DNA of 64,000 nucleotides from Candidatus Woesebacteria bacterium (GTDB lineage Bacteria; Patescibacteriota; Microgenomatia; UBA1400; PJMF01), in the NCBI GenBank assembly GCA_050123235.1, contig JASFHL010000005.1, positions 30,695 through 94,694 on the forward strand, written 5' to 3'. Under the pieces are notes generated by a model, which worked only from the letters and a program-made list of their open reading frames with translations, was not told the DNA's origin and ran no database searches. Below, one piece after another: positions 12,135 through 45,148 of the stretch (positions are counted from its first letter, which is position 1; each line of letters opens with the position of its first letter). The position numbers and the translations under genes were made by a program.

Positions 12135-12449
12135 ATGAAAAGAAATGATATTAAAAAACTAGCTGAAAATAATTTGCCAGAATTAGCTAAATTGCTGGAA
12201 GAATTGCAAATGAATTTAGCCAAGACTAGACTTGAAAAAAAAGCTGGCAAGCTGGAAAATACAGCTCTGCTGAGAATTTATGCTGATGATATTGCTAGGA
12301 TCAAGACTGTGATGACTGAGAAAAAGTTATCAATTAAGGTAGATCCCAAAACAGAAATCAAAAAAAAACCTGTTGCTAGTCAAAGCAAAAGCAAGAAAAA
12401 ACTAACAAGCAAGATGAAAGTTAAAAAAGAATCTAAATCTAAAAATTAG
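12135..12449 (+). CDS. rpmC: 50S ribosomal protein L29 (extended)
   Basis: 104 aa; L29 helical core (LEELQMNLAKTRLEK) plus a K-rich tail; operon position. Confidence 0.85.
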   Translation: MKRNDIKKLAENNLPELAKLLEELQMNLAKTRLEKKAGKLENTALLRIYADDIARIKTVMTEKKLSIKVDPKTEIKKKPVASQSKSKKKLTSKMKVKKESKSKN

Positions 12450-28824: not shown

Positions 28825-28912
28825 GGAAGCGTCGCATAGTGGCCAATTGCACAGGATTGCTAATCCTGAGCCCTTATGGGCTTCGTGGGTTCGAATCCCA
28901 CCGCTTCCGCCA
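28825..28912 (+). tRNA. tRNA-Ser (anticodon GCU), CCA encoded
   Basis: Hand-folded cloverleaf: acceptor GGAAGCG/CGCTTCC; D-loop with AGTGG; anticodon stem CAGGA/TCCTG with loop TTGCTAA (U33, GCT anticodon, A37); long variable arm GCCC-TTAT-GGGC; T-arm GTGGG-TTCGAAT-CCCAC; discriminator G + CCA. Confidence 0.9.
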
Positions 28913-39522: not shown

Positions 39523-42500
39523 ATGAAATTTTTTAAAAAACCCCTCGTTTTTATTTTTTCTTGTTTTCTTTTTCTTTTAGTTAGCTTATTAGCAAATAAA
39601 AAAATTCATTTTTTTTCTAGCTCAGTTCCTGCTTTTGCTCAAAGCACTGACTCTCAAATTTTGATTAGTGCCAAAGAAGGAGATCAAGGTTTCAAAGCTG
39701 TGATTGCTCAATCTTCTTTGGAGGAGCCAGCTGTTTGGGTTGGAGATCATAAGCTTAATGGTGAGCTTGAATTGAGAGTTTATAAAGCAACGCTTACTTC
39801 CTTACTTGAATATCTAGCCCATGACGAAGATAACAATCAAGTTAATCCTGATGTTAGAGCTTCAGAATTAGAGCAGCTGGTAACTATCAATGAGCCGATT
39901 GCTTTTGCTCAAAAAAAGATTCTTCTTCCTTTGGAAGAAACTGGAGTCTGGTATTTGGAAGCTAGATTTAAAGGAGAAACTTGGGTAGGTAAGACTTTTT
40001 TGATTCGTTCTAAAACAGGAGTTTTAGTTAAAGAAGGAAATAATGAGCTTATCTTTTGGGGTCAAGATTATGCTAGTAAAAGAAGTATCAATCAAGGAGA
40101 AGTCACAGTTTATAATTTGGAAAATTCTATTCAAACTCTTGCTCAGAGTAATTTTAATCAAGATGGCGTTGCTAAAACAGGGATTAGCACTGATGCTGAT
40201 ATAGCTATTTTTAAAAATGGTAATGACATATCCCTGACGCCGATTAATCTACGTTTCTTAGAAGGCAACTGGGGTTACAATTTTTTTACTCCCAAAGAAA
40301 GAAAAGCCAAGTTTTTCACTTTTACTGATAGACCGCTTTATAAACCAGGAGACGTGATTAAATTTAAATCAATTATTAGAGACGATGATGATGCGGTCTA
40401 TTCTATTCCCAAAGGTTTAGCTCAAGTGAAGATTTATTCAGATGATTATGACAATCCTGTTTTTGTAGACAATTTTCCTATTACTGATGAAGGCAGCATC
40501 GCTGGTGAAGTAACACTGCCGGCTGATGCAAGTACAGATTATTATTATCTAGAGGTAAACTTAGATGCAACAGAAGAAGCTGACTATTATAATTATAATT
40601 TACGTGATTATGTTTATTTTCAGGTGGAGCATTATCGAAAACCAGAATATTCAATAGACATTGAAGCAGAAGAATCAGAGTTAATAGCTGGTGATAGTTC
40701 CTCTTTTACTATCACAGGTAGTTATTTCTTTGGAGAACCAATTAGCAAGCAAACTGTGAAGTATAAAATTTATTCAGCTCCTTATTGGTCTTCTGATTAT
40801 TACGGGCAAAGAAAAATTGAATTAAGTGACAATTATCGCTATGGATATTACTGGGGTAAAGAAGTGACTAGTGGTACGGCTGTGTTTAACAGTCAGGGTG
40901 AAGCAGTGATTGATTTTGAAGCTCTACTACCTGAAATAGATGCAACAGCTTCTTCTTATACCTCAAATACGTCCAAGAAAAGCCAAATTTATGCAATTGA
41001 AGCAGAGTTTGATGACGGTTCAGGAAATTCAGTTTTTGCTAGAAAAAATATTTTAGTGCGTAATGGTGAGTTTGGCATTTTTAAGAAAAACTATCAAAGT
41101 ACTGCGCTACTTAATCAAGAAATAGATGTTCCAATCAAACTAGTAGCTTATCAAGATGATGTTCAAATAAGTAAAATTGATTTAACTGTCAAGCCTGTGC
41201 ATCAAACTTGGGTGCGTGAAGAAGTAGAAGGTCAGAAATATCCTCGTTTTCGTGAAGAAAAAAAAGAGTTAAAAGAATTTTCTATAGTTACAGATAAACA
41301 AGGTGAGGCCACTATTAAGTTCACTCCTGAAAAGCTTGGTTCTTATGTGATGACAGTAGTGGCAGAAGATTCCAGGGGCAACCAAATCTCTAAAGATTTT
41401 TATTTTTGGATTACTGATGAAAAACAAGCTGTTTTCAGTGGTCAATATGAACAACATCTTGATATCCAAATTGATAAAGAAGAATATCAATTTCAAGACA
41501 CAGTCAAGGCAATTATTTCTTCTTCTGAGCCAGATAGGGATCTTTTCTTATCATTTGAAAGAGATGGGGTGAGGCGTTTTCAAACAGTTAAACTTCATGC
41601 TCAGACAGCCACTGTTGAACTGCCTTTGCAACAGACAGATATGCCGAATATTTTTTTATCAGTAGCAAGTTTTACCAAAGGACGCTTAGATAGTAACAAT
41701 CGAGTTGTTCATGTATCCCCTGATCCTCAAAAATTAACTGTTGAAATTAAAGCTAATAAAGAACGATATGTGCCTGCAGAAACAGTGACGCTTGATATTT
41801 TTACTAAAGATTTTGCTGGTAATGCTATCCCTGCTGAGACTGCAGTTTGGGTAGTTGATAAAGCAATCTTTGAATTGACTAATCAAGGAACAGCTGATAT
41901 TTTTAATCGCTTTTGGAGTGAACGTTATTTAAATACAGCAAAGTCTCACTCTTTAGAAGGCATTTTTATGATGAATATGGGAGGTGGCGGTGGCTGTTTT
42001 ACAGGAGATACTCAGATTTCTATTGCTAACGGAAAGGACAAGGCAATCAAAGATATTAAAATTGGCGATCAAGTTTTAACAAAGAAGAATCCCAATGATA
42101 AGCCAAAAGCAACTAAAGTAACTAAAGTTTTTGAGCATCAAGTTGCTGGCTATTTCTTAGTCAATGCTTCGCTTAAAGTTACCCCAGAGCACATCATGTG
42201 GATCAATGATCGCTGGCAAACTGCCTCTCATTTAAAAATAGGCGATAAGCTTAGGGACAGTCAGAATAATGAAATAGAAGTAGTTTCACTGGAATGGCAA
42301 GATGGCTTATTTAAGGTTTTTAACTTAGAAGTAGAAAATGCTCATACTTTTTTTGCCAATGATATCTGGGTACATAATCAGAAAGGTGATGGTGGTGGTA
42401 GAAAAATTTTTGAAGATACAGCTTATTGGAATCCTTTTGTTAAAACTGACGCCAATGGTCATGCTCAAATTACTTTTAAATTGCCAGACAATTTAACTAC

Positions 42501-44670
42501 CTGGGTGATTAGTTCAGTCGGAGCTACCCAAGATACTAAAGTCGGTCAAAGTACTCAAGAGATTCTTGTTTCCAAGAGTGTTGTTTTAAGGCCAATTTTA
42601 CCTAATCTTTTACTTATAGAAGACGAAATCGTAATCCCTGCTATTCTTCACAACTTCACTGATGAAGATCATGAGTTTAAAGTAAACTTAGAGACTGATA
42701 GTGCAGAGATTTTAGATCAAAATAAACAAACAGTGATAGTAAAATCAGGCGAGTTTGCCCAAGTAGCTTGGCATTTAAAAGCAAGTCAAGCAAATGAAGT
42801 AGCAGCTTTTACTTTTTCAGCCCAAGCAAGTGATAATCAGGAGCTATCAGATATTATCACTCGTAAGATTCCAGTAAGAAAGTTTGGTTTTTGGGAGAAA
42901 ACAGGTGAAAATTCAGAAGGTTCTGGTAGCTTTACTCTTAGCTTAAATCCAGATAGTGATAGAGAAAAATCTAAATTCACGCTTTTGCTCAGTCCAAGTC
43001 TGATTTCCAGCTTACCTTCTGCTATGAAATATTTAGTAGATTATCCTTACGGTTGCACAGAACAAACTACCAGCCGTTTTGTGCCAGCTGTGATTGCTAA
43101 GGAAAACCCGCAGCTTTTTGCTGAGGCTCTGAAAGATAAGGATCTTGATGCCATTATTAATAAATCTATTAGCAAATTAGCTGATCATCAACAAAGTGAT
43201 GGCGGTTGGTCTTGGTGGTCGAATGGCGAGAGTGATTATTTTGTCACAGCCTATGTTTTAGAGTATTTACTGAGGGCAGAAAAATTAGGATTTGATGTAA
43301 ACTATTTCATTAAAAATCAGGCAAAGCGTTTTCTTTCTACATTGAGACAAGAAGATCGGGAAAAAGCTGCTAATCCTTCAGCTGAAGAGTTGAGAGAGTC
43401 TATTGAGGAATTGATTATTAGATCCTATGCTCTTTCCCTCTTAGGAGAGAGATTGGAAAGCTTTCACGGTTTTGAAGGTTTAAGTCCGGATATTTTAGCT
43501 CTAGCAGTAATGAGTAACTTTAATAATGGTAATACTGATCCTCAAACTAATGGTCTGGATTATCTTTTATCTTTGGCCAAAGAACAAGGAGATAGTTTAT
43601 ATTGGCCAGCTGGTAAAAGTAGATACTTTGGTTCTCAAGCTGCCTCTACAGCTTTAGCTATTAAAGCACTTGCTAAGGCGAATTATCAATTGCCAAAGGC
43701 TGGTCAAGCAGTTAAGTTTTTATTAAAGAATCGTAAGAATCGTTATTGGGCAAACACCTTTGCTACTGCACAAATTGTGCAAGCTGCAGTTGATTTTGCT
43801 CATAGTAGCGAGCAAACTAATCCTGATTTTAGTTTCACAGTTTCTTTAGACAACCAGCAACTTCATCAAGCCCTAGTCAATGATTCGATGCAAGAATTAG
43901 AAGCAGTGGAGATTAAAGGTACAGATTTAGCAGCAGCCACTGCTCAGTTAGCTGTTGAAAGATCAGCTGGCCCAGGTCAATTGTATTTCACCCTCTTGAC
44001 CGAAGAATTCCGTACCAATAAAAACGCTGACGCAGTCAGTCATGGCATCAATATCAAGCGTAAATATGTCAATACCAAGGGTGAAGATTATTCAATTGGC
44101 GTAGGAGATATTATTAATGTTGAGCTCACAGTAGGTGGCCTAAATAGTACAGACTATTATGCAGTGATTGAAGATCAATTACCAGCCGGTATGCTGCCAA
44201 TTAATAAGAAGCTTAAGAGTGAACAATTTACTCAAGAAACAGACAATTACTATAGCACAGCAGGGCAAGAGGTGACTGAAAATGGGATGATTATTTCTTT
44301 ATATAGAATCAGTCCAAAAGAAAAAATTTATACTTATCAAGCTCGAGTAGTTAATCAAGGCAAATTCATTGCTCCGCCAGCTAAAGTTTTCTTGATGTAT
44401 TCTCCTGAAATCTATGCTAGGACTACAACTGAAACAGTAGAAATTATGGCAGAGTCTAAAGCTAGCGGGTTCAAGCGAATCCAGGAATTGATTGGCGCTG
44501 ATAGACAGCCAATAGTGCTAATTCTTCTTATTTTAATTATTCTGCTTAGCCTATCGTTAATTGGATTTTTGATTTTGAAGAAAAAAAGACCGGCTACTTT
44601 TAAAAAATTGAAGAGTAAAATTTTAGCTTTGAAAAAAGTTCGAAAGAAAGATAATTCAGAAAAGAATTAA
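39523..44670 (+). CDS. giant alpha-2-macroglobulin/thioester-containing-protein-like surface protein with an embedded Hint (mini-intein/BIL-type) domain
   Basis: 1715 aa; N-terminal signal peptide; C-terminal TM helix + basic tail; thioester-type motif DYPYGCTEQTTS (compare PYGCGEQ of A2M); long beta-rich N-terminal region consistent with MG domains; complete Hint domain at aa 825-952. Confidence 0.8.
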   Translation: MKFFKKPLVFIFSCFLFLLVSLLANKKIHFFSSSVPAFAQSTDSQILISAKEGDQGFKAVIAQSSLEEPAVWVGDHKLNGELELRVYKATLTSLLEYLAHDEDNNQVNPDVRASELEQLVTINEPIAFAQKKILLPLEETGVWYLEARFKGETWVGKTFLIRSKTGVLVKEGNNELIFWGQDYASKRSINQGEVTVYNLENSIQTLAQSNFNQDGVAKTGISTDADIAIFKNGNDISLTPINLRFLEGNWGYNFFTPKERKAKFFTFTDRPLYKPGDVIKFKSIIRDDDDAVYSIPKGLAQVKIYSDDYDNPVFVDNFPITDEGSIAGEVTLPADASTDYYYLEVNLDATEEADYYNYNLRDYVYFQVEHYRKPEYSIDIEAEESELIAGDSSSFTITGSYFFGEPISKQTVKYKIYSAPYWSSDYYGQRKIELSDNYRYGYYWGKEVTSGTAVFNSQGEAVIDFEALLPEIDATASSYTSNTSKKSQIYAIEAEFDDGSGNSVFARKNILVRNGEFGIFKKNYQSTALLNQEIDVPIKLVAYQDDVQISKIDLTVKPVHQTWVREEVEGQKYPRFREEKKELKEFSIVTDKQGEATIKFTPEKLGSYVMTVVAEDSRGNQISKDFYFWITDEKQAVFSGQYEQHLDIQIDKEEYQFQDTVKAIISSSEPDRDLFLSFERDGVRRFQTVKLHAQTATVELPLQQTDMPNIFLSVASFTKGRLDSNNRVVHVSPDPQKLTVEIKANKERYVPAETVTLDIFTKDFAGNAIPAETAVWVVDKAIFELTNQGTADIFNRFWSERYLNTAKSHSLEGIFMMNMGGGGGCFTGDTQISIANGKDKAIKDIKIGDQVLTKKNPNDKPKATKVTKVFEHQVAGYFLVNASLKVTPEHIMWINDRWQTASHLKIGDKLRDSQNNEIEVVSLEWQDGLFKVFNLEVENAHTFFANDIWVHNQKGDGGGRKIFEDTAYWNPFVKTDANGHAQITFKLPDNLTTWVISSVGATQDTKVGQSTQEILVSKSVVLRPILPNLLLIEDEIVIPAILHNFTDEDHEFKVNLETDSAEILDQNKQTVIVKSGEFAQVAWHLKASQANEVAAFTFSAQASDNQELSDIITRKIPVRKFGFWEKTGENSEGSGSFTLSLNPDSDREKSKFTLLLSPSLISSLPSAMKYLVDYPYGCTEQTTSRFVPAVIAKENPQLFAEALKDKDLDAIINKSISKLADHQQSDGGWSWWSNGESDYFVTAYVLEYLLRAEKLGFDVNYFIKNQAKRFLSTLRQEDREKAANPSAEELRESIEELIIRSYALSLLGERLESFHGFEGLSPDILALAVMSNFNNGNTDPQTNGLDYLLSLAKEQGDSLYWPAGKSRYFGSQAASTALAIKALAKANYQLPKAGQAVKFLLKNRKNRYWANTFATAQIVQAAVDFAHSSEQTNPDFSFTVSLDNQQLHQALVNDSMQELEAVEIKGTDLAAATAQLAVERSAGPGQLYFTLLTEEFRTNKNADAVSHGINIKRKYVNTKGEDYSIGVGDIINVELTVGGLNSTDYYAVIEDQLPAGMLPINKKLKSEQFTQETDNYYSTAGQEVTENGMIISLYRISPKEKIYTYQARVVNQGKFIAPPAKVFLMYSPEIYARTTTETVEIMAESKASGFKRIQELIGADRQPIVLILLILIILLSLSLIGFLILKKKRPATFKKLKSKILALKKVRKKDNSEKN
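41995..42378 (+). other. Hint / mini-intein-like (bacterial-intein-like) domain inside the A2M-like ORF
   Basis: Starts with Cys in block A (GGGGG|CFTGDTQISIANG); block B TPEH; blocks F/G VFNLEVENAHTFFANDIWVHN; ends His-Asn. The +1 residue is Gln and both junctions are poly-Gly (MMNMGGGGG / QKGDGGG). Confidence 0.85.
43051..43065 (+). other. putative thioester site (GCTEQ) of the A2M-like protein
   Basis: DYPYGCTEQTT resembles the CxEQ thioester motif (PYGCGEQNM in eukaryotic A2M/C3). Confidence 0.6.
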
Positions 44671-44755: not shown

Positions 44756-45148
44756 CTACTTTTTTTCGCAAATCTCTTGTTGAAATTTTTTGTTATATCT
44801 ATCAAACAATTTTTGAAATTCCTGATGAAGCTCTTCCATGACTGTATCTTCCACATTTTCTATGTTGAGTAATTTAGTTCTAGCCCCTTTGACTGCTCTA
44901 ATTAACTCATCTAGTTTGAGATGAATGGCTCTACTATCCCTGTTTTGTGTATTTTGAATTAAAAATACCATTAAAAAAGTAATGATAGTGGTAGTAGTAT
45001 TAATTACCAATTGCCATGTGTCAGAAAAATTAAAAATCGGCCCAGTGATAAGCCAAAGTGCAATAATACTTATGGCTATAAAAAACGCCCAAACTGTCCC
45101 TACAGTGTGAGCAATCTTGTTTGCTAGTTTTCTAAAAATATTGTGCAT
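44756..45148 (-). CDS. low-affinity iron permease-family (Fet4-like, PF04120-type) small membrane protein
   Basis: 130 aa; GTVWAF...SDTWQLVINT.TTIITFLMVFLIQNTQNRD...KLDELIRA motif block characteristic of this family. Confidence 0.55.
   Translation of the reverse strand: MHNIFRKLANKIAHTVGTVWAFFIAISIIALWLITGPIFNFSDTWQLVINTTTTIITFLMVFLIQNTQNRDSRAIHLKLDELIRAVKGARTKLLNIENVEDTVMEELHQEFQKLFDRYNKKFQQEICEKK

Follow-up and report, generated by a model that had tools for sequence, protein, structure and literature searches.

A thioester protein with an inserted Hint domain

The window analysed here is a stretch of 64,000 nucleotides from a contig of a Candidatus Woesebacteria bacterium (JASFHL010000005.1). 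At positions 39523–44670, it contains an open reading frame (ORF) with an ATG start that codes for a protein of 1715 residues. The protein is identical to the NCBI entry MGD9129505.1, 'alpha-2-macroglobulin family protein [Candidatus Woesebacteria bacterium]'. The ORF call and the Pfam architecture identify the gene as that of an alpha-2-macroglobulin (A2M) into which a Hint domain of the bacterial intein-like (BIL) kind is inserted. A thioester protein of this kind, with a signal peptide, a C-terminal membrane anchor and, where the bait region would lie, a complete Hint domain, had been proposed from the bare sequence (the original prediction). A homologue search of 5.8 billion proteins yielded 322 relatives at E ≤ 1e-10, the best 120 of which (P0001–P0120) were analysed. 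All 120 are full-length A2Ms that share 39–48% identity with the window protein. Where source names are given, they are mostly Woese-, Davies-, Gottesman- or Woykebacteria or 'Patescibacteria group', and most sequences stem from metagenome-assembled genomes (MAGs) of the Microgenomates group of the candidate phyla radiation (CPR).

All features of the gene lie on the plus strand. The N-terminal leader (residues 1–39; positions 39523–39639) has a hydrophobic core at about residues 8–24 with a Kyte-Doolittle maximum of 2.34 (19-residue window, first 60 residues) and a possible signal-peptidase site, AFA/Q, that was read from the sequence only. It is followed by the macroglobulin (MG) domain MG2 (263–351; 40309–40575; PF01835, E = 6.8e-11) and the A2M bait-region domain A2M_BRD (646–785; 41458–41877; PF07703, E = 2.3e-13), whose modelled segment was matched by Foldseek to the E. 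coli A2M (ECAM), to the Salmonella A2M (SaA2M) and to complement C5 (E about 1e-17). A disordered bait-like segment (803–824; 41929–41994) has a predicted local distance difference test score (pLDDT) below 50 for residues 803–822 and ends in a run of glycines (..TAKSHSLEGIFMMNMGGGGG). The last of these, Gly824, is the −1 residue of the Hint domain (825–952; 41995–42378), for which Pfam, NCBIfam, a PDB sequence match, AlphaFold2 and Foldseek provided the evidence given below. The C-terminal flank (953–965; 42379–42417; QKGDGGGRKIFED) contains Gln953 (+1), Lys954 (+2) and Arg960 and leads into the A2M domain, the equivalent of MG7 (966–1056; 42418–42690; PF00207, E = 5.6e-19). The thioester motif CTEQ (1178–1181; 43054–43065) lies inside the thioester domain (TED), to which a TED_complement match at residues 1161–1273 belongs. 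The C-terminal MG domain bMG10 (1508–1629; 44044–44409; PF17973, E = 1.1e-18) contains the motif L-M-Y at residues 1624–1626. A C-terminal transmembrane (TM) helix (1664–1682; 44512–44568; Kyte-Doolittle value 3.28 for these residues) is followed by a Lys/Arg-rich tail that extends to the stop codon. The landmarks around the insert are GGGGG at 820–824, Cys825 in CFTGDTQ, TPEH at 887–890, His951-Asn952, Gln953-Lys954, GDGGG at 955–959 and GCTEQ at 1177–1181. The Hint domain thus occupies 48.1–55.5% of the length of the protein, and the thioester Cys1178 is found at 68.7%.

The Pfam matches for MG2, A2M_BRD, A2M, TED_complement and bMG10 all exceed the gathering cut-off, and the ordered MG/BRD/MG7/TED/C-terminal MG layout of the bacterial A2M type is present. 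PDB sequence searches matched the protein to ECAM and SaA2M with E = 3e-26. The CxEQ motif occurs in all 120 homologues, and GCTEQ is aligned with the YPYGCLEQ region of ECAM. Protease trapping with covalent capture by the thioester would be the function expected of such a protein. In 86 of the 120 homologues, which comprise about 1700 residues, there are exactly two cysteines, namely Cys1 of the Hint domain and the thioester cysteine. The third cysteine of the window protein, Cys14, was located by inspection within the hydrophobic core of the leader, in a non-lipobox context. Leader and membrane anchor were assigned by hydropathy only; an N-terminal hydrophobic stretch was detected by the same means in 111 of the 120 homologues and a C-terminal TM-like stretch in 114. 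The C-terminal TM helix and its Lys/Arg-rich tail support the view that the body of the protein would be located outside the cell and be anchored at its C-terminus.

The insert resembles type A BIL domains

The best-scoring Pfam family for the insert was PT-HINT (PF07591), which matched residues 840–952 (E = 8e-11; 42.7 bits versus a cut-off of 27.7). Vint matched residues 824–905 (34.1 versus a cut-off of 27), and the NCBIfam model intein_Cterm matched residues 931–952 above its cut-off; Pfam Hint (PF01079) scored below cut-off on the window protein. The catalytic residues are Cys825, Thr887 and His890 of block B, Asn934 of block F, and the terminal pair His951-Asn952. In a PDB sequence search, the best match of the insert was 2LWY, a BIL domain from C. 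thermocellum (E = 2e-9), ahead of Hint domains of toxin-like proteins and of DnaB/RecA mini-inteins. 2LWY is reported to be the structure of BIL4 of this organism (Aranko et al. 2013); earlier literature on type A BILs includes Amitai et al. (2003) and that of Dassa et al. (2004).

An AlphaFold2 model of residues 812–966, which was based on 65 homologues, reached a core pLDDT of 96–98 and a predicted template-modelling score (pTM) of 0.82. Among the PDB structures searched with Foldseek, the best matches of the Hint model were 6Y75 and 6TMM of BUBL BIL2 (TM-score 0.76–0.80, with 0.78–0.80 for 6Y75; root-mean-square deviation (rmsd) 1.9–2.7 Å; 23% identity), and 2LWY was matched with a TMt of 0.85 and an rmsd of 1.8 Å. 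DnaB, gp41-1 and RecA mini-inteins ranked below the BILs and were followed by Hedgehog (ranks 22 and 28); overall, TM-scores of 0.7–0.85 were obtained for BIL domains and mini-inteins. The asparagine of block F is embedded in VFNL in the window protein, in VYNL in the family consensus and in VYNF in 2LWY, whereas DnaB inteins have an Asp. Both the sequence and the predicted structure therefore suggest that BIL domains are the closest relatives of the insert.

Type A BILs end with His-Asn as inteins do, which separates them from type B, and they lack a nucleophile at position +1 (PMC4031507); their +1 residue is one other than Cys, Ser or Thr (PMC4031507, PMC7664689). The insert possesses the Hint fold, Cys1, the TxxH of block B, the terminal His-Asn and a non-nucleophilic +1 residue and is, by these sequence criteria, a type A BIL domain. 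Splicing of such domains without a +1 nucleophile occurs by cyclisation of the Asn, after which the freed alpha-amine attacks the N-terminal thioester (PMC4031507). Cleavage products dominate over spliced ones (PMC4031507, PMC7664689), and one mutation is sufficient to make BILs efficient splicers (PMC7664689). BUBL BIL2 ligates via the epsilon-amine of a Lys (PMC8616854).

Other assignments were rejected. In the PT-HINT domains of polymorphic toxins a toxin would be expected downstream, but the insert is followed by MG7-TED-MG10-TM and no toxin domain, and no toxin or immunity genes were found in the gene neighbourhood of the window A2M. Hint domains of the Hedgehog/Hog type are C-terminal, have a sterol-recognition region, employ the N-terminal acyl shift only and do not end in His-Asn; this is not compatible with the internal position and the terminal His-Asn of the insert, and Hedgehog structures rank below BILs and inteins. 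A canonical class 1 intein has Cys, Ser or Thr at position +1 for transesterification, sits in a conserved site of its host protein, is distributed sporadically and often contains a homing endonuclease. Against it speak Gln953 at position +1, the disordered Gly-rich loop as insertion site and the vertical distribution described below; the 128 residues of the Hint domain also leave no room for a homing endonuclease. When all six-frame ORFs of at least 50 residues in the window were searched with the hidden Markov model of the family Hint (hmmsearch), no second Hint copy was detected.

The Hint domain is located in the bait loop

An AlphaFold2 model of residues 540–1110 (mean pLDDT 85.8) consists of MG-type beta domains and two short helices. 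Along the chain, the disordered residues 803–822 (pLDDT < 50) are followed by the Hint domain (pLDDT 90–97), a second disordered stretch (955–963, pLDDT < 50) and MG7. Foldseek matched this model to ECAM (5A42), the Salmonella A2M (4U48), C5, C4, A2ML1 and human A2M with E-values between 1e-17 and 1e-11.

The E. coli yfhM sequence (NC_000913.3) was aligned to the family profile from which the Hint domain had been removed. In this alignment, ..FW.ERY of the family corresponds to ..FFGQKR923Y of ECAM, the disordered residues 803–822 to the disordered bait R923-L942 (plus FGG), AE-GGG...R to AALRFGGDGDELKR956, and the conserved SLEGI to VIEGQG. Arg960 is thus the counterpart of Arg956 in ECAM, and the Hint domain is placed directly after the bait, between A2M_BRD and MG7, seven residues before Arg960. 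In ECAM, residues R923-L942 form the disordered bait (PMC4498604). After cleavage by elastase, the downstream segment with R956, G958 and N963 binds to the C-terminal MG domain at ExMY/RDDR and displaces the thioester domain; R956 then touches Met1634 of the MG10 motif (PMC4498604). The ExMY motif of ECAM has been described in the same work (PMC4498604), and its ..SMY.. is aligned with M1625-Y1626 in MG10 of the window protein. Both of these residues occur in all 120 homologues.

The Gly-rich stretch is native to the A2M loop, as relatives that lack the Hint domain contain five to eight glycines (G5-G8) and ECAM contains FGGDGD. The poly-Gly junctions are therefore not the purpose-built linkers for which they had been taken. 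The architecture given in the original prediction was otherwise borne out. Profile searches placed PT-HINT, Vint, A2M, A2M_BRD, TED and MG domains above cut-off, structure prediction recovered a Hint fold between disordered linkers (core pLDDT 90–98), and Foldseek and the ECAM alignment agree with Pfam and AlphaFold2 that the bait-region loop of this A2M/thioester protein holds a Hint domain that is complete. An alignment of the homologues contains the insertion in 114 of 120 sequences and lacks it in six. The positions given for the Hint domain (825–952) and for the thioester cysteine (1178, at about 69% of the length) were reproduced on recomputation, an N-terminal leader and a C-terminal TM anchor were supported by hydropathy, and the proposed bacterial-intein-like character was specified further by BILs as nearest neighbours in sequence (2LWY) and structure (BUBL BIL2, 2LWY).

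Catalytic residues are invariant in the family

In the MAFFT alignment of the 120 homologues, the Hint domain occupies the same site in 114 sequences. These come from independent assemblies, which excludes chance as an explanation. In all 114 proteins, Gly(−1), Cys1, Phe2, Thr887, His890, Asn934, His951, Asn952 and Lys(+2) are invariant. The +1 residue is Gln in 80 cases, Glu in 17, Asp in 16 and Asn in one, but never Cys, Ser or Thr. Arg960 is present in 120 of 120 homologues, including those without a Hint domain.

An exhaustive HMMER scan with the Hint domain only covered 1.84 billion representatives of 50%-identity clusters and gave 1576 matches at E ≤ 1e-10, the best 150 of which were inspected. 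Many of these are proteins of 1640–1880 residues with a single Hint domain at about residues 790–1230, as in the A2M-Hint family. Among 146 further proteins listed, 52 are family members with complete domains. All 52 contain G(−1), C1 and H-N, and 50 contain Lys(+2); their +1 residue is Q, D, G, E, L, K or N. Across the 166 family sequences (114 + 52), position +1 is thus never occupied by C, S or T, in agreement with the proposal that this is not a canonical splicing intein, and no decayed Hint copy was found among them. The invariance of the catalytic residues argues for retained autoprocessing, which would hence have been kept throughout the family.

The Hint domain is inherited with its host and was probably lost repeatedly

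Pairwise identities of the Hint domain and of the host protein are correlated (Pearson r = 0.75; 6441 pairs, 1488 host columns). The mean pairwise identity is 0.546 for the Hint domain and 0.507 for the host, which means that the Hint domain is slightly better conserved. Its divergence tracks that of the host; this is co-inheritance under purifying selection rather than horizontal homing, and the domain has been passed on vertically within the A2M family of Microgenomates/CPR.

The six proteins without a Hint domain occupy at least four separate places within the Hint-bearing part of a neighbour-joining tree, which was calculated from uncorrected identity distances and midpoint-rooted, without an outgroup or support values. 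The most economical reading is an ancestor with a Hint domain and subsequent loss in at least four lineages; repeated gain may have occurred instead. In all six proteins, a run of 5–8 Gly is found at the site, and the [QEDN]-K that follows the Hint domain elsewhere is absent as well. It follows that the mobile unit is Cys1...Asn-X-Lys.

A natural pair of alleles is formed by P0078 (locus L059), which has the Hint domain, and P0114 (locus L058), which lacks it; the junction is near residues 815–960. The two proteins are 81% identical on the N-terminal and 78% on the C-terminal side of the site, and the corresponding nucleotide identities are 79% and 77%. Six Gly codons (GGC GGC GGT GGC GGA GGA) in P0114 stand where P0078 has the Hint domain and NKDGVD. 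An origin of the alleles without Hint by simple deletion between flanking GGY repeats was rejected because of the six substituted Gly codons and the flank identities of 79%/77%.

Related proteins and outlying matches

Several putative A2M-Hint variants (such as P0178, P0199, P0213, P0217, P0235 and P0265) seem to have an N-terminal extension of about 200–500 residues. Proteins of the P0178-type subgroup comprise 1740–1880 residues (up to 2199), and their Hint domain is located at about 1000–1370 instead of about 820. The nearest relatives of the Hint domain outside A2Ms (31–43% identity; P0121–P0137 and others) contain 2–12 Hint copies in tandem. Some of these proteins have a prepilin N-methylation motif (P0128), TadE (P0133) or PKD (P0129), and as a whole the tandem-BIL proteins look like a surface or pilin-like family. 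Their Hint junctions are mostly of the form G|C...HN|K, with Lys(+1) in 84 and Gly(−1) in 89 of 140 cases.

A single scan of genome contigs was of little use for determining the distribution, as it returned only six Hint-bearing loci (L001–L006). The remaining matches covered only the FKDTAYWN start of MG7 and belonged to other phyla. L001–L006 are from 'binchicken' TPA MAGs that are labelled Gammaproteobacteria or Pseudomonadales and have GC contents of 36–48% (36–39% in four of the six). The hallmarks of the CPR-type Hint domain are present in L001–L005 and only partly matched in L006. Similar taxonomic outliers are P0002 ('Nevskiaceae') and P0079 ('Limnocylindrales'). The Gammaproteobacteria-type labels are probably errors of binning or taxonomy, but a spread of A2M-Hint beyond CPR may be genuine. 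A MAG labelled 'Patescibacteria group bacterium' (JBMNNJ01; L007 and L008) apparently has two A2M copies without a Hint domain on two large contigs; in this match, query residues 1–220 fall into only about 270 nt.

Genomic context

Upstream of the A2M gene, the window codes for YibE/F, a hydrolase, an OmpR-type regulator, a polyprenyl synthase, an SDR and a HAD protein. Downstream, the next gene codes for a Fet4-like iron permease and is on the minus strand (44756–45148); an HTH-PAS protein and QueH are encoded further on. No pbpC, protease, sortase or toxin/immunity partner was found in the window flanks of the A2M gene. Related loci have differing neighbours, apart from a recurrent Memo-family gene (PF01875), which lies directly downstream of the A2M gene at 12313–13182 in L056, 6373–7242 in L057, 4990–5904 in L058 and 6578–7507 in L059. 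The A2M proteins of these loci are P0027 (L056 and L057), the Hint-less P0114 (L058) and P0078 (L059); in L059, a weak Peptidase_M10 gene is located just upstream of the A2M gene. Gene context gives no functional clue.

The GC content of the window is 35%. GC skew is positive in each 2-kb bin of the 64000 nt and the cumulative skew climbs steadily; nearly all long ORFs between 28 and 56 kb are on the plus strand. The window seems to lie within one replichore with a strong bias of genes for the leading strand. ARAGORN, which was applied to the whole window for tRNA and tmRNA genes, identified a single gene, tRNA-Ser(GCT) at 28825–28912.

Comparison with known systems

With type A BILs, the insert has in common a Hint domain of about 130 residues without endonuclease, Cys1, TxxH, a block-F Asn as in 2LWY, the terminal His-Asn and a secreted or surface-located host protein. 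The hosts in which type A BILs have been described are toxins or variable proteins of the surface (FhaB-, MafB- and Rhs-like, cellulosomal), where they usually precede a releasable C-terminal part. In contrast, the BIL of the window protein is internal and lies in the bait loop, through which a thioester protein is activated; it is a fixed feature of a CPR family and is accompanied by an invariant Lys(+2). With BIL2 of BUBL1 from Tetrahymena thermophila, it shares the Gly before Cys1 and a lysine amine near the C-terminal junction. BUBL BIL2 forms an isopeptide between a Lys epsilon-NH2 and a C-terminus without ATP (PMC8616854). However, the BUBL protein is eukaryotic and cytosolic, its flanks are ubiquitin-like and not MG domains, and a Zn-dependent activation has been reported for BUBL BIL2. 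Pretoxin-HINT (PF07591) is recognised by the same Pfam model, but the window Hint domain precedes MG7-TED-MG10 and not a toxin.

Among A2Ms, ECAM/YfhM (5A42, 4ZIQ, 4RTD) and SaA2M (4U48) have the same MG-BRD-MG7-CUB/TED-MG10 order, CxEQ, a disordered bait, a Gly-rich stretch, the conserved Arg and M-Y. The identity between the window protein and ECAM is 12% (Foldseek). ECAM is N-terminally lipidated, periplasmic and encoded beside pbpC, whereas the window protein has a C-terminal TM helix, no pbpC neighbour and a Hint domain in its loop. An assignment to the ECAM/YfhM subtype, i.e. a lipoprotein paired with PBP1c, was rejected for lack of an N-terminal lipobox and of an adjacent pbpC. In complement C3/C4/C5, a loop equivalent to the bait region is cut to yield a two-chain thioester protein, and Foldseek confirmed the correspondence of the segment with C5, C4 and C3. 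Removal of the anaphylatoxin domain from this loop, at the MG6 linker, triggers exposure of the thioester, and the two halves stay associated. It is external proteases (furin, convertases) that cut complement. In the window protein, by contrast, the predicted cut would be autocatalytic, and the inserted domain is a Hint and not an anaphylatoxin domain.

A model for autoprocessing and its alternatives

Starting from what was observed, namely the architecture, the insertion site, the fold, a catalytic set that does not vary, vertical inheritance and clean loss in several lineages, a route can be outlined in which processing would occur, cleavage would prevail over ligation and the thioester domain would respond. 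We consider it quite possible, if somewhat short of probable, that the bait loop contains a catalytically active type A BIL whose main outcome is a protease-independent opening of the loop, which would yield a two-chain A2M and serve maturation or priming. The protein would be exported via Sec and fold outside the cell. Cys825 would then perform an N-S acyl shift at the Gly824-Cys825 bond and form a thioester with Gly824, cyclisation of Asn952 would cut the Asn952-Gln953 bond, and the 14-kDa Hint domain would leave the loop. Hydrolysis of the Gly824 thioester would result in two chains, MG1-BRD and MG7-TED-MG10-TM, which would remain non-covalently associated as in C3. Opening of the loop would untether QKGDGGGR960; its counterpart in ECAM binds to the C-terminal MG domain once the bait has been cleaved and thereby sets the thioester domain free. 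Autoprocessing would thus represent a built-in step of maturation or priming, possibly an activating one. The mapping of R960 to R956 of ECAM provides a concrete structural rationale for such a self-activating trap, and the conservation of the Hint domain in the family suggests that these traps may open or mature themselves without a protease.

The Gly824 thioester could be hydrolysed, re-ligated or transferred, and all three fates are chemically plausible. Hydrolysis was ranked first because characterised type A BILs mostly cleave and because no Cys, Ser or Thr has been gained at position +1 in more than 160 diverged sequences, although a single change is sufficient to make an efficient splicer. 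Selection for catalysis is supported by the fixation of G(−1), C1, T887, H890, N934, H951, N952 and K954, while host columns are only about 51% identical.

A number of points weigh against protease-independent opening of the loop. Alleles without the Hint domain and with a continuous Gly loop occur in at least four places in the tree; the protein is therefore viable as a single chain that lacks the module, which fits a harmless splicing passenger equally well. If self-activation were constitutive, the thioester would be lost to water without some control of timing or target, and there is no evident regulator. Ligation rather than simple hydrolysis is suggested by the precedent of BUBL BIL2 together with the invariance of Lys(+2) and Gly(−1), and each step of the proposed processing is deduced from conserved residues. 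With a pTM of 0.55, the model of residues 540–1110 leaves the placement of the Hint domain relative to the MG domains undefined. Similarity in the ECAM loop alignment is low, so that it serves as a pointer and not as proof, and the window protein has TENG in place of a conserved RDDR docking motif.

An alternative that is unlikely on balance, yet has to be taken seriously, is that the BIL is a benign passenger that excises itself. After cyclisation of the Asn, the Gly824 thioester would be attacked either by the alpha-amine that is freed on Gln953 or by the epsilon-amine of Lys954, which would re-join the flanks. An ordinary A2M would result, consisting of one chain and having a bait loop rich in Gly. 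The catalytic residues would be kept for the sake of the host, and the passenger would persist only because imprecise loss would break the host protein. The loop that is expected of the ligated product (AE-G5-8-xxR) is present in the Hint-less relatives, which are scattered through the tree, and the stretch FGGDGDELKR in ECAM is comparable. The non-nucleophilic +1 residue, which the original prediction had cited against a selfish splicing intein, does not exclude splicing, since type A BILs can splice without a +1 nucleophile by means of the alpha-amine (PMC4031507) and since it is a Lys amine that brings about ligation in BUBL BIL2, the best match by structure (PMC8616854). The invariance of Lys(+2) and Gly(−1) and the Lys(+1) in 84 of 140 sister Hint domains are also hard to explain by hydrolysis alone. 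On the other hand, cleavage is dominant in characterised type A BILs (PMC4031507, PMC7664689), and selection for efficient splicing should have produced a Ser, Thr or Cys at position +1, which is found in none of more than 160 diverged sequences. Moreover, the whole Hint domain, and not only its catalytic residues, is at least as conserved as the host, and loss is limited to about 5% of the listed relatives even though clean loss is evidently possible.

Improbable, in our view, is a combination of both chemistries in a two-warhead thioester protein with a built-in trigger. Here, the Gly824 thioester would be passed to an amine, and cyclisation of the Asn would at the same time release the R960 segment and fire the TED thioester with no protease involved. 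The amine might be that of Lys954 in cis, with an A2M branched by an isopeptide as the product, or, by analogy to BUBL BIL2, it might be supplied in trans by a foreign protein or a cell surface. The protein would then be a self-triggered covalent adhesin or opsonin of an epibiotic CPR cell, directed against a host cell or an attacker, and not a passive trap. Marginally less credit is due to trans-ligation as a second warhead, in which an outside amine would resolve the Gly824 thioester and the N-terminal arm of 800 residues would become covalently linked to its target. Candidate amines are a Lys or the N-terminus of an attacking protease, a surface protein of the host cell or an amine of the cell wall. 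BUBL BIL2, as the best structural match, does transfer its ubiquitin-like N-flank, by way of the C-terminal Gly, to lysines on other proteins (PMC8616854), Gly(−1) is invariant, and the loop in question is the one at which A2M is engaged by proteases. However, there is no evidence of a target, hydrolysis, the alpha-amine of Gln953 and Lys954 should compete strongly, structural likeness among BILs does not carry over substrate behaviour, and the Hint-less alleles function without the domain.

That the Hint domain is an inactive insert, which stays in the bait loop of the mature protein and acts there as a bulky plug or serves recognition, is very improbable. A compact, well-predicted fold with flexible flanks would be tolerable in this position, and oxidising conditions outside the cell can inactivate a catalytic Cys; but C1, the T and H of block B and H-N are invariant (114/114 and 52/52) and no copy is decayed, which would be unexpected without a catalytic constraint. 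Least credible of all is a canonical mobile class 1 mini-intein that has invaded the gene recently. Blocks A, B, F and G do resemble those of DnaB/RecA mini-inteins. Yet neither C nor S nor T ever occurs at position +1, a homing endonuclease is missing, the host protein is secreted and non-essential, and the site is a variable loop. In addition, the distribution in this deep family is vertical (r = 0.75) and not sporadic, and BILs outscore inteins by sequence as well as by structure. This explanation is effectively refuted by the residues at position +1 and by the distribution.

Implications

Both modules, the bacterial A2M and the type A BIL, are of known kinds; new is their combination, with an internal BIL in an activation loop across a whole CPR family. 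The architecture had been proposed as undescribed. This stands insofar as no paper on an A2M with a Hint domain in the bait loop was found in full-text searches of the literature outside most subscription journals; in databases, however, a large CPR family is already annotated automatically. Its members are named 'alpha-2-macroglobulin family protein', 'hypothetical protein' or 'Large extracellular alpha-helical protein', and UniRef100_A0A1G1VZV2 carries the name 'Intein C-terminal splicing domain-containing protein'.

To our knowledge, the biological roles of BILs are still mostly conjecture. With the A2M family, they would gain a host protein with a well-understood conformational switch, in which processing could be read out via thioester reactivity, collapse and protease trapping. 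The module itself is a compact, naturally extracellular and Gly-flanked unit of 128 residues that is predicted to be self-cleaving and might be of use in protein engineering. Even if the domain merely splices, it would still show clearly that a BIL can persist in nature for a long time in a protein that is secreted and non-essential, with the allele pair P0078/P0114 at hand for comparison. The cell-surface biology of Microgenomates-group CPR bacteria and their attachment to hosts are poorly known. We know of no characterised member of the A2M/C3 superfamily in which the bait or linker loop is not cut by an external protease, which thereby controls the thioester. If opening of the loop by the BIL is true, the A2Ms of these bacteria would represent the first self-processing thioester proteins.

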